A stretch of 64,000 nt of DNA from Vulcanimicrobiota bacterium. GTDB taxonomy: Bacteria > Vulcanimicrobiota > Xenobia > Xenobiales > QWHO01. Below the pieces are notes generated by a model. It was not told where the DNA came from. It did not search any database and saw nothing but the letters and a program-made list of their open reading frames with translations. How positions within the stretch are numbered: position 1 is the first letter of the stretch; each line of letters begins with the position of its first letter. Of the stretch, positions 25,408 to 32,843 are shown in pieces. Made by a program: the position numbers and the translations under genes. Location of the stretch: positions 20,164 to 84,163 of the forward strand of contig CAUJEN010000043.1 in the NCBI GenBank assembly GCA_963169765.1, in the 5' to 3' direction.

Positions 25408-26637
25408 GTGCTGGTCAACGAGCAGGCCCTCCTCTACAATACTGCTGCACGGCGCATGAGCGTGCTCGGCTCCACGCGCCGGGCCGCGCCTGAGAACAGG
25501 GAGCGCGACGGCGAGGAATTGCTGGCCCGCATGCAGGCCCGGCACACTTTCGATCCCCAGAAGAGCCTGATGCATCGGCTGTCCCACCTGGCCTCGGCGC
25601 TGGGACCTTTCGAACGCAACGATTTCAGCCCCGACTTCGTGGAGCGCCTGCAAGAGGAGGCGCAGGGTCGCAAGATTCTCTACGTCAGCACTCCGGTTAC
25701 GGGCGGCTTCCGCCTGTATCAGTTCCTGGAGGGCAAGGGCAAGAAGTCGGTGCGCGAGCTCGACCCGGCTGACAACGCCGAGTTCGTCTGCCAGGTGATC
25801 GAGAAGAATTGCGCCGCCGCCGACGAGCTGGCCCAATCGCTGCGTCGCGAGGACACGCTGGTGGTGGATCCCAGCCGCCTGGCCGTGAATCGCTGGCAGC
25901 AGGCCGAATATCTCAATCACTGGCTGGACGTGGTCAAGATCGCTTCGGGCGTGGTCATGCAGGATGGCTGGGAGCTCTCTGAAGGCTGCGTTCACGAGGC
26001 CCGCACCGCCTTCTCGCTGGGCATTCCCGTCTACGATGCGCGCTTGGGGCAACTGACCCGCGAGAGCGCGCTGGGCCGGCTGGAGGATTCGATGGAGCGG
26101 GTGCGCCAGGCGGGTTTCAACCCGCCCGACCTCGAGGAAGTGCTCACTCGCACCGATGCCTGCCACGCCGAGGTGCCCGAGCCCCAGCTCTTCAAAGCAT
26201 TGTTCGTGCCTGACCGGCATCCCGACCAGGGTACCCATCCGGCCCCCGCTGGACCCATCGAGCAGAGCGTGGTGCAGGTGGCGGGCAAGCTGGCGGCAGC
26301 CTGCGAGGAGGCCGATGCTCGCATTCGTCGAGCCGACTCGCCCGAGCAACTGCGCGAGTTGGAAGACCGCATGGTCGTCGCTCTGGACGCCGAGGACTCG
26401 AGGGCGGTAGACGCTCTGGAGGCTCTCCTCGCCCAGAGCAGCAAGAAGCTTTCCGGGGCCGCGCTGCCCTCGGGTTTTCAAGATTGCGGGCGGGGTGTGT
26501 TCACCCTCAACCTGCATGAGGTGGCGCGCAACAAGCAGGCTTTTCTGGGGGATCAGGTGGGCCTGCTGGTGGTGGACACCACCCCGGGAAAAGACGGGAT
26601 GAACTATTACATCTTGCCAGTCGAGCCAAGAGAGTAG
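25408..26637 (+). CDS. Nucleoside 2-deoxyribosyltransferase/Rcl-like (DUF4406-type) domain fused to ~200-aa unknown C-terminal domain
   Basis: 'KILYVSTPVTGG...DVVKIASGVVMQDGWELSEGCVHEARTAFSLGIPVYD' fits the NDT/DNPH1-like Rossmann pattern. GTG start directly after the deoC stop. Confidence 0.45.
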   Translation: MLVNEQALLYNTAARRMSVLGSTRRAAPENRERDGEELLARMQARHTFDPQKSLMHRLSHLASALGPFERNDFSPDFVERLQEEAQGRKILYVSTPVTGGFRLYQFLEGKGKKSVRELDPADNAEFVCQVIEKNCAAADELAQSLRREDTLVVDPSRLAVNRWQQAEYLNHWLDVVKIASGVVMQDGWELSEGCVHEARTAFSLGIPVYDARLGQLTRESALGRLEDSMERVRQAGFNPPDLEEVLTRTDACHAEVPEPQLFKALFVPDRHPDQGTHPAPAGPIEQSVVQVAGKLAAACEEADARIRRADSPEQLRELEDRMVVALDAEDSRAVDALEALLAQSSKKLSGAALPSGFQDCGRGVFTLNLHEVARNKQAFLGDQVGLLVVDTTPGKDGMNYYILPVEPRE

Positions 26638-26673
26638 CACTCCAAGAAAACTGATTCAGGAGGGTCTTTTGTC

Positions 26674-27543
26674 ATGATCTTGCAACAGGTCAACACTGCC
26701 TCATTTGCTCGTCCCACCCAGGCCACCGAGACCGCGCCGCCCGAAGCTCCGGCCGAGCCCAGAGAGAAGTTCAGCCCCACTCGGGCGGCAGCGGGCGCAG
26801 TGCTCACCTTCATGAACCGGCGCATTCCCACCACCGTGCCCGAAGTCACCAAAGAAAAGGCCGACGAGCTCAAGGGCAAGCTCCAACCGGGCGACGTGAT
26901 CATGACCTGCGACTGCGCCTACCCCGGCTGGGCTCGCATGGAGTTCTGGACGGTGCGCTCCAACTACATCCACGCCGCCTACTACGCCGGCGATGGCAAA
27001 ATTCTGGAAGCGGTCGGCAAGGGAGTTATCGAGACAGAGCTGGACGGCTTCTTCGAGGGCCGGATGAAGGTGGCCATCGTGCGCCCCGACTACAAGACTC
27101 CCGAGGACGTGGCGGCCGCCACCGCCTACTGCCGCTCGCAGCTGGGCAAGCCTTACGACAGCGTTTTTAACTCCGACGACGACAAGGAGTTCTACTGCTC
27201 CGAGCTGGTCTTCAAGGCTCTCAAGAGCATGCCCAACCCTATCGAAACGCCCTCCAGAGAGCTGCTGGGTCGTCAGGCGGTGGCCCCGGATGCCTTTCTC
27301 TCCATTCCCGGCATCCAGACGGTGCACGACGACAAGAGTAACTATTGGACCAATAAGGTCGGCCACTGGCCCATTGCGGCCGCGACCGTGGGGCTCGGCG
27401 CGGCGGGAGCCGCCATGGGCGGATGGCCGGGGGCGGCCGTGGGTGCCGGTGTGGGCCTGGTGGGCTCCATCCTGGGCTGGAACAAGCTCCAGACGGGTTA
27501 CTTTCTGCCCAGCGTGGAAGATTTCCGCGGCGGCAAACAGTGA
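26674..27543 (+). CDS. YiiX/YaeF-family permuted papain-fold (NlpC/P60-like) hydrolase with C-terminal glycine-zipper membrane segment
   Basis: 'GDVIMT...', 'HAAYYAGDGKILEAVGKGV' and 'EFYCSELVFKAL' give the permuted His...Cys signature of PF05708. C-terminus 'AAATVGLGAAGAAMGGWPGAAVGAGVGLVGSILG'. Confidence 0.6.
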   Translation: MILQQVNTASFARPTQATETAPPEAPAEPREKFSPTRAAAGAVLTFMNRRIPTTVPEVTKEKADELKGKLQPGDVIMTCDCAYPGWARMEFWTVRSNYIHAAYYAGDGKILEAVGKGVIETELDGFFEGRMKVAIVRPDYKTPEDVAAATAYCRSQLGKPYDSVFNSDDDKEFYCSELVFKALKSMPNPIETPSRELLGRQAVAPDAFLSIPGIQTVHDDKSNYWTNKVGHWPIAAATVGLGAAGAAMGGWPGAAVGAGVGLVGSILGWNKLQTGYFLPSVEDFRGGKQ

Positions 27544-27710
27544 TTTTTCAGCGCCTTCGGGCAAACTGAAGGCGTGACATCCGTCCGTTCCTGCTTCATC
27601 ACCAGGGGGCCACGCTGCACCTGCGGCCGACCGCCGCGCCGAGCCCCGCGGATGGCTTTGCGCCTGGACTCGAGCCTGCCGCGCCGGCAGCTGGGCCGCG
27701 CTTTTCCCCG

Positions 27711-28682
27711 GTGCAGGCGGAGGGCTGGCGACTGAGCGACCTGGCCTCGGTGGGCGAGGTGCACAAGCAGGCCATGGCGATCGTGGATGGGCACCTCGCC
27801 CTTCAAGGGTCATGTCCTCAACGGCTTTTCCGGCAGCGGTCTGACCAGCCTGATGAAAGCCATCGCGGGCGAGATCGAGGCCCGGGGCACCCACGCTCTT
27901 TGCCAGCGGGGCCGATCTGGCTGACCCACGCTGCCGGCCCGCCCGAGCCCCTGGCCGTGGACGAGCGTTTCTTCAAACTGTCGGTGGCCCACGAGATGGG
28001 CCACGTGGTCGTGCGCCATTTCTTCCAGCGCCTGGCGCGCGAGTCGAAGAACAGCGACGAGCTTCCTCAGGCTATCGACCTGGTTTCCTTCCACCCCCGC
28101 AAGGGGGCCCAGGCCTTCGTCAACCTGATGTTCGGGGGGAATGCCGCCAAGACATTCGAGTACTACTTCGCCGAGATGGCCTCCGACTATGGCGGGCGGG
28201 CGGCTGAGTATTTCTTCGGCAAGGGCCACCTGTCGGCCGGTCCGGGGGGGGATCTCTCCCGCGCCCAGCAGCTCTCCTCGCCGGCTGCTCAGCTGCTGGC
28301 TCAGGAAGCGGTGCAGAAAGGCATGGGAGCCGAGTCGGGCGCGCAGACCAACCTCAGTCCCACCGCTGATGCCGTCAAGCTGGAGAAGGCGGCCGAGGAG
28401 GCAGCCTACACCCTGGTAGCCTTCTACGGCAACTTCATCAAGGAATTCTCCAACGAGGTGCTCGCGCGCCGTCAGAGCGGACAGGAGCTGACCTTCTCGG
28501 GGCGCGAGCTGACCCGCCGTCTGAGCCAGTGGGAGGCCGACCGGGCTGTGCCGCTGGCGGTACTGGCCCAGCAGATTCGGGGCCAGCGCGACAGGCTGCG
28601 CCCCCAGGCCCCGCCTGTGTTCGACCCGCTCAGCGGTCAGCTGCGCCCGGCCGCCGAGGTGGCTGCGGAGCTCTCTTTCTAA
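27711..28682 (+). pseudogene. Degenerate FtsH-like (M41 peptidase) gene with frameshifted, internally deleted AAA region
   Basis: 'LSVAHEMGHVVV' aligns to FtsH HEAGH. Upstream fragments align to the FtsH pre-Walker/Walker A region ('LSDLASVGEVHKQAMAIVDGHLA' then 'PFKGHVLNGFSGSGLTSLMKAIAGEIEARG') but sit in two frames, with a degenerate P-loop. The ~250 aa of AAA core between Walker A and HExxH is absent. Confidence 0.45.
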
Positions 28683-29385
28683 ACCAGTCTCTCAGGGCCC
28701 GCAGGCGGCTCTTGAGCAGGGTTGCGTAGATGCGGGTCGAGTCGCGCACCAGATCAAAGTGCGAGCTCTCGTTCTCACCGATGTAGACGGTCTCGATGGT
28801 CACCTGGCGCAAGGGGCGCTTGCGGCAGTAGAGCAGCACCTCCAGCTCGTACTCGTAGCCGTCGTAGTCGATGCTGAGAAGCTCGGGGATCCAGCCCATC
28901 GGATGGCCGCGAAGGCCGGTCTGGGTATCGCGGATGATCCGCCCTACCAGCACCGCGAAAACCACCCGGGTGAAGATGTTGCCGATGCGTCGGGGCCAGG
29001 GAACGCCCTTGCGAGTGAAGCTGCGCACCCCCAGCACCAGCGCGTCGGGATGACGCTCGAGCTCCTGGGCCACCCGCCAGGCGTCGCCGGCGCGGTGCTG
29101 GCCATCGGCGTCCAGGGTCACCGTGCCCACCTCGCCCGGCGGTGCGGTGCGGTGAAGATGCTCCAGGCCGGTTCGCAGGGCCGCGCCCTTGCCGCGATTG
29201 CGCTCGTGCTCGAGCAAGGTGACCTTCGGCCTGGCTCGGACGGCCTCGAAGATGCGTGCGCATTCGGGCTTGCTACCATCGTTGATCACTACCACCCGGG
29301 CAAAGCCGGCTGCGAGCACGGAATCGACCACTTCGACCAGAAGCTCGGTGGGCTGGTAGGCGGGGATCAGGGCTGAGGTAGACAT
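28630..29385 (-). CDS. Family 2 glycosyltransferase
   Basis: 'VVVINDGSKPE' and 'TVTLDADGQH' DxD region, GT2 fold. 251 aa. Confidence 0.8.
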   Translation of the reverse strand: MSTSALIPAYQPTELLVEVVDSVLAAGFARVVVINDGSKPECARIFEAVRARPKVTLLEHERNRGKGAALRTGLEHLHRTAPPGEVGTVTLDADGQHRAGDAWRVAQELERHPDALVLGVRSFTRKGVPWPRRIGNIFTRVVFAVLVGRIIRDTQTGLRGHPMGWIPELLSIDYDGYEYELEVLLYCRKRPLRQVTIETVYIGENESSHFDLVRDSTRIYATLLKSRLRALRDWFRKRAPQPPRRPGAADR

Positions 29386-31242: not shown

Positions 31243-32727
31243 TCAGCCAGGACTCGTCGGGGATCCGACAGGGAGATTGAGGACCTCAGCCGTCTCCGCC
31301 CGCACCCGCCGGCACAGATCGGGGTCATCGATCAGCGAGTGCCCATAGGACGGGATCATGGCGCCGAGCCTGGCGCGCCAGGAAGGCAGACGCGTCGCAA
31401 AGCACTTCTCCACCACGTCCAGCATGGTCTTCACAGCGGTGGATGCCCCGGGCGACGCGCCCAGCAGCGCGGCCAGGGAGCCGTCTGAAGAGGTGACGAG
31501 CTCGGTCCCGAACTGCAGCACGCCGCCGTGCTCCTGGTCGCGTTTGATGATCTGCACGCGCTGTCCGGCCACCTGCTCGCGCCAGTCGGACTCCTGTGCC
31601 CGGGGATAGAATTTGCGCAGCAATTCGAACCGGTCCTCGTCGCTCTCCAGGACCTGCCCGATCAGATAGCGCGTCAGGGCCATGTTGTCGCGGCCCACGG
31701 CCAGCAACGGCAGGAGATTGTGCGGGTCGATCGAGCCAAACAGATCGAGGTAGGACCCGTGCTTGAGGAACTTGGTCGAGAAGCCCGCGTAGGGACCGAA
31801 GAGCAGCGCCAGCTTGCCGTCGACGTGGCGCCGATCCAGGTGCGGCACCGACATGGGCGGCGCCCCCACCGAGGCCTTGCCGTAAACCTTCGCATCATGG
31901 CGAGAAGCCAGGTCCACCCGGTCGCTCCTCAGCCAGATCCCGCTTACCGGGAAGCCCGCGTAACCGTCCGCCTCGGGAATGTCCGACTTCTGCAAAAGCG
32001 GCAGGGTGCCGCCGCCCGCCCCGAGGAACACGAAGCGGGCCCGCACGATGCGATGCTCTCCGCTGCTCTTGTCTTGCACCTTTAGGGACCAGTGGTCTCC
32101 CCGATGACGCAGGTCCTCGACCCGGCTGCCAAAATGCGCCGTAAAGCACTCCTGCGCCTGCAGGTAGGTGACCAGCCCCCGCGTCAAGGCGCCGAAGTCC
32201 ACGTCCGTGCCCGCCAGGTGGCGGTTGGCGGCCACGCTCTGAGCGGCATCCCGTCCCTCCATCACCAGCGGGATCCATTCTCTCAAGCGACCCGGGTCCG
32301 CGGAGAATTCCATTCCGGCAAAGCAGTGGTGGGCGGACATCGCCTCGTATCTCCGCCTCAGGTAGGAAACGTTCTCCTCTCCCCACACGAAGCTCACGTG
32401 GGGCACCGGGTGGATGAAGTCCCCGGGCAGCAGCACGTCGCCCTGGCGCACCAGGTAAGCCCAGATCTGGCGAGAGAGGTCAAACTCGGTGTTGATCCGC
32501 AGCGCCTTCTTGATGTCCACGCTGCCGTCCGGGTCGGCGGGCGTGTAGTTCAGCTCGCACAGGGCTGCGTGGCCTGTGCCGGCGTTGTTCCAGACGTTGG
32601 AGCTCTCCAGGCCCTCGCCGGCCAGGGCCTCGTGCATCTCGATGCTCAAGCCGGGCTCGAGCTCCTTGAGCAGGATCCCGAGGGTGGCGCTCATGATGCC
32701 CGCGCCGACGAGCATGACGTCCATCAT
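31243..32727 (-). CDS. mqo: Malate:quinone oxidoreductase
   Basis: '[23 protein letters not shown]' FAD-binding N-terminus, '[17 protein letters not shown]' and 'MIPSYG'. ~495 aa. Confidence 0.85.
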
Positions 32728-32843
32728 GCCGACCCCTTCGACGAGCAACCTCTTTCTCGGGACAGTGCATAGAAGCCCCGCCGCTGGACAGAACAAGGGC
32801 TCCTGTCCCAGGGGAGAGCCTCGGGTCTCTCGAAGCAGCCGGC

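Follow-up and report, generated by a model that had tools for sequence, protein, structure and literature searches.

The window analysed here is a 64,000-nucleotide (nt) stretch of high-GC DNA, to whose positions all coordinates refer unless another locus is named, and its segment 27574-28682 holds the remains of a gene related to the protease FtsH, placed between a gene for a C92 (YaeF/YiiX) peptidase on one side and a convergent gene for a family-2 glycosyltransferase (GT2) on the other. As had been described in an earlier reading made from the letters alone (the sequence-only reading), an open reading frame (ORF) of 323 amino acids (aa) spans 27711-28682 and runs through an out-of-frame stretch, which is read as ALQGSCPQRLFRQRSDQPDESHRGRDRG. 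The sole Pfam signal of this ORF is Peptidase_M41 at a sub-threshold score (E 1.2e-3; 19.2 bits versus a gathering score of 29.9), and the GC content at third positions indicates that the coding frame moves to another frame at about 27760-27880 and back from about 27880 onwards. In protein searches, the NCBI annotation of the ORF has been found to be 'hypothetical protein DYH09_05840 [bacterium CPR1]', with 260 aa and a TTG start at 27900. The same searches returned a 93% identical protein of 516 aa with a Pfam AAA domain (P0002), which derives from a metagenome-assembled genome (MAG) of Candidatus Xenobia, a class within the phylum Vulcanimicrobiota, and further, more distant relatives of 450-545 aa. 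The gene of P0002 is intact, comprises AAA and M41, is 90% identical to the window copy, and lies at a syntenic locus (L001) in which DeoC, a 409-aa gene and C92 are followed by the FtsH-like gene and then by convergent GT2 and glycerate kinase (GlyK) genes. The window locus is the positional orthologue of this ∼500-aa, transmembrane-less AAA+M41 (FtsH-like) gene of Candidatus Xenobia. The claim of the sequence-only reading that a damaged FtsH-like gene has lost its AAA core is borne out by this intact orthologue and by a deletion of 440 nt.

Two checks proposed along with that claim, a comparison of orthologous loci and a tblastn mapping of the frame changes, have both been carried out. The former yielded the intact gene at L001, and the latter, with P0002 as the query, gave three segments, namely residues 3-79 at 27579-27809 in one frame, residues 73-113 at 27790-27912 in a second frame, and residues 221-516 at 27840-28679 in the first frame again. 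A tblastn search of the window with two canonical FtsH proteins found no canonical FtsH gene. When the N-terminus was stitched across the frames and compared with Pfam, no AAA match and only a weak ABC_tran P-loop match were obtained, so that the homology of the N-terminal part rests on the orthologue and not on profiles.

The lesions have been defined by DNA alignment of the window copy with the intact orthologue at L001; four lie within the gene, and a fifth abuts the stop codon. The ancestral GTG start (27574-27576, + strand, as all parts of the remnant) corresponds to the start of the 516-aa orthologue at L001:10001, and a 1-nt deletion in codon 2 (27577-27578; GTGA-CATCC versus GTGATCATCC) has cut it off from the downstream frame. 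It is now out of frame with everything that follows, and the ORF that begins there stops after 53 aa, at 27735. The adjoining frame-0 remnant (27579-27788) comprises, according to tblastn, P0002 residues 3-72, i.e., a disordered leader, whose predicted local distance difference test score (pLDDT) stays below 50 when the intact protein is modelled, and the pre-Walker-A helix; its first canonical in-frame start is GTG 27711, and its ratio of non-synonymous to synonymous substitution rates (dN/dS) is 0.23. One extra nucleotide in a G run (GGGC for GGC, 27789-27791) then carries the homology from frame 0 to frame 1, and taking out one G restores IVDG-TSPFKGH, in agreement with the outgroups. The frame-1 remnant (27790-27888) encodes the first AAA strand, the P-loop and a helix, GTSPFKGHVLNGFSGSGLTSLMKAIAGEIEARG, in which GFSGSGLT occupies 27823-27846, just as the sequence-only reading had given the P-loop. 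The loss of 2 nt from a C run (C5 reduced to C3, 27890-27892) moves the homology into frame 2, where PTLFASGADLA (27890-27922) represents the strand after the P-loop helix. The fourth lesion is the 440-nt deletion, whose junction lies at 27921-27924, with a possible CTGA microhomology when the flanks are compared with those in L001 and in L025, a more distant positional orthologue. As judged from the AlphaFold2 (AF2) model of P0002, the deletion has removed residues ∼118-263, which include Walker B, sensor 1, the SRH (second region of homology) as well as the whole lid, and its end falls within the final helix of the lid, 14 residues ahead of M41's first helix. Lesions 2-4 total −441 nt, and frame 0 therefore stays open through 44 junk codons. 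Homologous peptides are consequently met along the locus in the order frame 0, frame 1, frame 2, frame 0. The sequence-only reading was right that the frame changes, although it had counted two frames where PTLFASGADLA adds a third, and its 'two compensating frameshifts' fall short of the four lesions within the gene (−1, +1, −2 and −440). The short spacing that it had noticed between the P-loop and HEMGH (27990-28004) also stands, with corrected figures: 47 codons instead of ∼30, and 195 residues for the same interval in P0002, where ∼250 had been quoted for FtsH.

Downstream of the junction, the M41 peptidase domain and its C-terminal helices are intact (27924-28679; 252 codons, 756 nt), collinear with P0002 and ungapped, with the zinc site formed by HEMGH and a zinc-ligand Asp codon at 28251-28253. 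A G8 homopolymer inside this ORF (28244-28251) ends in the Asp codon and is in frame in every assembly; its counterpart in L001 is interrupted (GGCGGGGG). The TAA stop codon coincides with the junction of lesion 5 (28680-28683), a deletion of ∼133 nt recognized by comparison with L001, with a TGA...TGA microhomology on the remnant's stop codon, which is TAA in the window. This deletion takes out a hairpin-rich convergent spacer together with the last four codons and the stop of GT2. In L001, the spacer (L001:11552-11684) has strong hairpins (−50.8 kcal/mol over 117 nt) and is probably a bidirectional terminator. Since the outgroup L025 also has a hairpin spacer of 108 nt (L025:7111-7218), next to a GT2 of 239 aa, the loss of the spacer is derived in the window lineage. 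The AAA half of the window copy is certainly gone, and what has been left in a readable state is the M41 half.

The homology to FtsH, on which the sequence-only reading depended, is significant. A profile built from seven members of the family matches crystal chains of FtsH from end to end (6gcn_A, with profile 36-447 on chain 25-454; E 3e-36), and P0006 and P0007 score above the Pfam gathering scores for AAA as well as for M41. The AAA fold is present in the intact relatives (Pfam AAA E 1e-10 to 4e-17, with Foldseek in agreement), and for P0002 the AF2 prediction (pLDDT 82) can be superimposed on the FtsH cytosolic region in its entirety [3kds_F, template modelling (TM) score 0.77, root-mean-square deviation 3.8 Å, E 8e-20]. 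The AF2 model of the window remnant (pLDDT 81.7) matches only the protease domains of FtsH, YME1 and AFG3L2 (3kds_E, E 7e-7). No transmembrane segment has been found by a Kyte-Doolittle scan of 20 family members, in which the maximum 19-residue mean is at most 1.32 compared with 2.56 and 3.06 in two canonical FtsH proteins; the window remnant is likewise without one, and the N-terminus of P0002 is predicted to be disordered. In the close clade P0002-5, Walker A has the form G[FN]SG[SA]G[LTM][TS] versus the canonical GPPGTGKT, with GFSGSGLT in the intact orthologue P0002 and GNSG[AS]G[LTM][ST] in P0003-5. As P0002 carries the very P-loop of the window, the degenerate Walker A, which had been taken for a sign of decay, is a family trait and not a symptom of it. 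Walker B of this clade reads FIDGLD versus the canonical FIDEID (DE to DG), the FVGVG pore loop is deleted, and RPGRFDR with the SRH arginines has become (R/T)HLPGLL; given these losses, no ATP hydrolysis is predicted. The family and FtsH share an invariant M41 site, with HE[ML]GH, GGRAAE, the Asp ligand of GPGxD, and GMG. Identity among P0002-5 amounts to 62-65% in the AAA module and 64-70% in M41. The AAA module of the family had thus become catalytically degenerate before the window lineage lost it, and these comparisons mark it as a retained pseudo-ATPase.

An exhaustive profile search of 1.84 billion representatives has returned ∼20 full-length members with a single domain pair (500-610 aa) before generic multi-AAA proteins appear, and the family comprises ∼20 clusters at 50% identity. 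Most of the distant members keep GK[TS], and several sub-clades (P0128, P0130, P0008, P0002-P0005) seem to have lost the Walker A Lys independently of one another. The acidic pair of Walker B varies across the whole family (ED, DD, DE, DG, KD). In many proteins of 800-1100 aa (P0143, P0152, P0153, P0156, P0165 and others), the C-terminus gives a match to the AAA+M41 family profile as a whole, in a single stretch, and large N-terminal regions lie ahead of it. A second member, P0003, is an intact paralogue of 495 aa and 70% identity that occurs in the same two MAGs and the same sequencing runs as the remnant (L006:2114-3601 = QWHO01000514.1; L007; L004).

The substitution record of the M41 half gives no sign of relaxation. 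Its dN/dS relative to L001 is 0.097, as compared with 0.099 for C92 and 0.068 for the 409-aa gene, both of which are intact neighbours, and all of the residues that are invariant across FtsH (H, E, G, H, GGRAAE, D, G) have been kept. In M41, the window lineage has 2 derived amino-acid changes and the lineage of the intact L001 gene has 10, versus 12 and 10, respectively, in GT2 plus GlyK (Fisher p = 0.066). At the nucleotide level, 4 versus 11 non-synonymous and 13 versus 10 synonymous derived changes have accumulated in M41 in the window and L001 lineages. A slower window lineage as the source of the 2-versus-10 asymmetry is unsupported, in view of the 12 versus 10 changes in GT2 plus GlyK and the 13 versus 10 synonymous changes in M41. 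The lesions point in the same direction, as none of the five lies inside the 756-nt M41 block, which random placement of five lesions of these sizes would miss with P = 0.021. A homopolymer-driven mutational bias has been dismissed as the cause of this sparing, since runs of at least five are as common in M41 (five, including the in-frame G6 and G8) as in the N-terminal half (four). With respect to what is expected of a pseudogene, the frame is broken when set against the intact syntenic orthologue and the lesions are real, whereas dN/dS of the M41 half has not moved toward 1 and the lesions are not randomly spread, as they would be under relaxed selection.

We consider the chances about even that the window encodes a stand-alone M41 protein which is still under selection, and this is slightly likelier than a very recent pseudogene. 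The 440-nt deletion has taken the AAA core, three small frameshifts have scrambled the residual 350 nt on the 5' side and severed the ancestral start, and the ∼133-nt deletion has cleared the downstream spacer up to the stop codon. In this reading, the 5' remnant would be dead and decaying, while the 756-nt M41 half would be held by purifying selection and probably be translated from an internal start (GTG 27957, TTG 27900 or GTG 27711) on a read-through transcript of C92. Among these three candidate starts for an M41 product, GTG 27957 or TTG 27900 would be the simplest; the former is the first residue of the first M41 helix and the start of a 241-aa gene call. The predicted product would be a stand-alone M41 zinc peptidase of ∼240-320 aa, which may assemble into a protease ring and cut unfolded peptides free of ATP.

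A number of observations weigh against a selected stand-alone protein. Three gene callers have chosen three different starts, giving 323, 260 and 241 aa, and a scan for Shine-Dalgarno motifs has found none in range of most candidate starts, the exception being ATG 27774 with GAGGTG 12 nt upstream. The DNA upstream of GTG 27957 is almost the same as in the intact orthologue, promoter and terminator scans gave no informative signal, and as far as such signals can tell, a positive sign of translation is absent from the start-site analysis. In the intact family, the AAA module is about as conserved as M41 and would thus matter to the protein, so that its loss may abolish function; the intact paralogue P0003 in the same genome would make a simple loss tolerable. 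The substitution record of M41 argues against relaxation, but by itself also fits a very recent death, and in the AAA fragment, too, replacements are not clearly in excess. The gene may thus be an ordinary, very recent pseudogene whose function is covered by P0003, whose M41 half is pristine for want of time, and whose lesions have fallen into the 5' part and the spacer by chance or mechanism, an account to which we give somewhat less than an even chance. It agrees with four disruptive lesions, including the loss of a whole domain and a severed start codon, with the occurrence of the intact paralogue in the same two MAGs and runs, and with the lack of any newly acquired start signal. The 5' remnant (88.7%) and M41 (90.1%) are about equally close to L001 in nucleotide identity, so neither shows long neutral evolution, and the lesions look like ordinary mutational decay, in that homopolymers hold two of the three small indels and short microhomologies accompany both of the large deletions. 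It is the lesions that discriminate between the two accounts. When the window is compared with L001, non-coding DNA has 23 indel events to 182 substitutions (ratio 0.126), and at this ratio five lesions in at most 926 nt correspond to ∼0.014-0.1 substitutions per site of neutral time, over which a neutral M41 would be expected to take at least 8 replacements and at least one indel. A recent pseudogene would have to acquire all five lesions within T of at most ∼0.014 substitutions per site, with 4-8 non-synonymous changes and no indel in M41. In a Poisson model, the maximum likelihood is 3e-3 (or 8e-4) if everything is neutral, so that the joint likelihood of the recent pseudogene reaches at most 3e-3, versus 8e-2 if M41 is constrained. 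The resulting ratio of 25-99 fold in favour of constraint is nearly unchanged at a 10-fold higher indel rate and is driven by the position of the lesions, for which the pseudogene account has a probability of 0.02. In addition, the window M41 has evolved more slowly at the protein level than that of the intact orthologue, which is the opposite of relaxation. The Poisson and placement statistics are based on five lesions, assumed to be independent, and on a handful of substitutions, and a local mutation burst would void the lesion statistics, which is a further point against the selected protein.

Two other explanations would remove the damage itself. An artefact of assembly or sequencing, in which a collapsed or chimeric contig or homopolymer miscalls conceal an intact gene of the organism, could be suspected because the source is a MAG and two of the small indels lie in G/C runs, but it appears very improbable in the light of the recovered assemblies. 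The exact 323-aa ORF has been called on contigs from three unrelated sequencing runs, and the 241-aa call of the same DNA on 14 more contigs. All of the 11 separately assembled contigs retrieved, from 10 sequencing runs and one other MAG (GCA_013328955.1), are at the level of assembled contigs 100% identical to window 27300-28900 or to the part of it that they cover, with no variant. The contig of a second MAG, QWHO01000038.1 (L003, GCA_021404945.1), differs from the window by 4 single-nucleotide polymorphisms in 20,783 nt and 0 gaps, and no difference lies in the FtsH-like gene. Frameshifting indels are absent from the 13 flanking genes compared with L001 (∼10.9 kb of aligned coding sequence), in which one 3-nt event and one 5+1-nt pair all keep the frame, and the protein collection yielded no intact allele of this strain. 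Among JGI metagenome contigs, the deletion junction had 0 exact matches, and a protein-guided scan of these contigs detected the P0003-type locus only; a scan of GTDB genomes gave at least two distant loci among the matches listed, and the population evidence has been taken from exact-protein look-ups. The lesions are real, and the allele is fixed in the population and identical in all recovered public assemblies of the strain. Since they recur in independent assemblies, re-sequencing is unlikely to restore the frame. Programmed recoding, on the other hand, would accept the sequence and let ribosomal frameshifting join the three frames into one functional protein, and the presence of homologous peptides from three frames inside one open frame-0 ORF could be read in this sense. 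Yet every shift corresponds to a simple indel when compared with the orthologue, which does without frameshifting, the stitched product would still be without 146 residues of the AAA core and without a Pfam AAA match, and the frames contain stops and are disconnected from the ancestral start. Programmed frameshifting is effectively refuted by the comparison with the orthologue, and we regard it as still less probable than an artefact.

The C92 gene upstream (26674-27543, + strand) is separated from the remnant by a gap of 30 nt and encodes a YaeF/YiiX-type permuted papain (PF05708, E 3.6e-16, 60.1 bits versus a cut-off of 27) whose C-terminus is hydrophobic and rich in Gly. The sequence-only reading had correctly identified it as a YiiX-like permuted papain, but the membrane-associated accessory pair which it had proposed for the two genes finds no support, as the FtsH-like family is without a transmembrane segment and C92 adjoins the FtsH-like gene only in the window and its closest relative (L001/L002). 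In L025, the FtsH-like gene follows a PilZ gene, and the block of DeoC, 409-aa gene and C92 lies 3.6 kb off in inverted orientation (window 24517-27543 versus L025:10758-13775), while in L010 the FtsH-like gene follows a GST gene. No C92 gene is present at the P0003, P0005 and P0008 loci in the stretches read. In front of P0003, a MazE/PIN toxin-antitoxin pair and a 168-aa gene are found in every case, and the two contigs reaching past it show a C11 (clostripain-type) peptidase on the other side; the neighbours of P0008 are different again. The adjacency of C92 is best read from these gene orders as the product of a rearrangement common to the window and L001, with no indication of a functional pair. 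The arrangement in the window and L001 looks like the result of an inversion from the FtsH-like gene to a response regulator, with one breakpoint directly upstream of the FtsH-like gene. The neighbour that is conserved in the positional orthologues L001, L010 and L025 is the convergent GT2 (28630-29385 in the window, − strand), with glycerate kinase nearby. The native last four codons of the window GT2 are lost, and its new 14-aa tail is antisense to the 3' end of the remnant and overlaps it.

Some further features of the surroundings have been recorded. The 409-aa gene (25408-26637) matches DUF4406 weakly (E 5.7e-6); it adjoins deoC (24517-25407), and the two are conserved together in L001 and L025. 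A gene of ∼445-495 aa at 20177-21667 (− strand) has weak Pfam matches to ATLF (anthrax lethal-factor-like) and Peptidase_M90, and carries the only in-frame 3-nt indel among the neighbours relative to L001. A TPR gene at L001:1474-2433 is absent from the window (∼19870), and in the place of an 815-aa gene (L001:14288-16735) the window has a malate:quinone oxidoreductase (31243-32796).

Taken for itself, the locus is minor and close to ordinary, as it contains one broken gene of an uncultured bacterium, and its interest lies mainly in the family. If the remnant is simply dead, an ordinary recent pseudogene has been annotated as 'hypothetical protein' in the databases. The family, having no membrane anchor, no catalytic ATPase residues in several sub-clades and a fully conserved zinc site, is a candidate for an ATP-independent M41 protease, of which no description has been found in the literature. 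The pattern of the damage, in which AAA is deleted or decaying and M41 is bracketed by deletions, untouched and slow, hints that an M41 ring may be useful without an AAA ring. By analogy, one may tentatively postulate that the Xenobia family is a soluble, ATP-independent counterpart of FtsH, with the AAA module as a dead scaffold or regulator, and that in the window the scaffold has been excised while the M41 ring is kept by selection; we regard this combined proposal as rather doubtful. If it were true, an M41 protease ring could function in vivo without an AAA partner in cis.

FtsH, an ATP-dependent zinc metalloprotease (MEROPS M41) that degrades proteins as a hexamer, is defined by an N-terminal transmembrane domain of one or two helices, an AAA ATPase, and an M41 domain with a zinc-binding HEXXH (PMC9020784). 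The intact relatives share with FtsH the order of AAA and M41, the fold of the whole cytosolic region, and the M41 motifs HExGH, GGRAAE, the Asp ligand and GMG, and the window copy, according to its model, retains the complete M41 fold. In contrast to FtsH, the family has no membrane anchor, and the close clade has other residues or a deletion in place of the Walker A Lys, the Walker B Glu, the pore-loop FVG and the arginines of the SRH, so that of the three architectural features of FtsH the family departs from two and shows M41 with its HEXXH. The window copy differs further in having no AAA core and an M41 score below the Pfam gathering score. An ordinary bacterial pseudogene shares with the window copy the frameshifts, the internal deletion, the loss of the start and an intact paralogue elsewhere, and differs from it in that the lesions seen here spare one complete domain, in which constraint is not relaxed. 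FtsH relatives retained with one of two catalytic modules inactivated are found in the FtsHi proteins of plant chloroplasts (PMC9020784, PMC8197885). These pseudo-proteases are membrane-bound and have lost HEXXH but kept a working ATPase, whereas the Xenobia family is soluble and has kept HEXXH but lost the ATPase motifs, and this opposite pattern speaks against placing the family in the FtsHi class. LonC of Meiothermus taiwanensis is an ATP-independent Lon-like protease which degrades unfolded substrates beside a dead AAA-like domain (PMC3391209). It is of unrelated fold, a Ser-Lys Lon protease as opposed to a zinc M41 protease, and it keeps its AAA-like scaffold, whereas the window copy has lost its own and the Xenobia family is known from sequence and models alone. 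With these differences, LonC may be regarded as the closest working analogy to the family, and as a precedent for an ATP-free protease with a dead AAA-like module.

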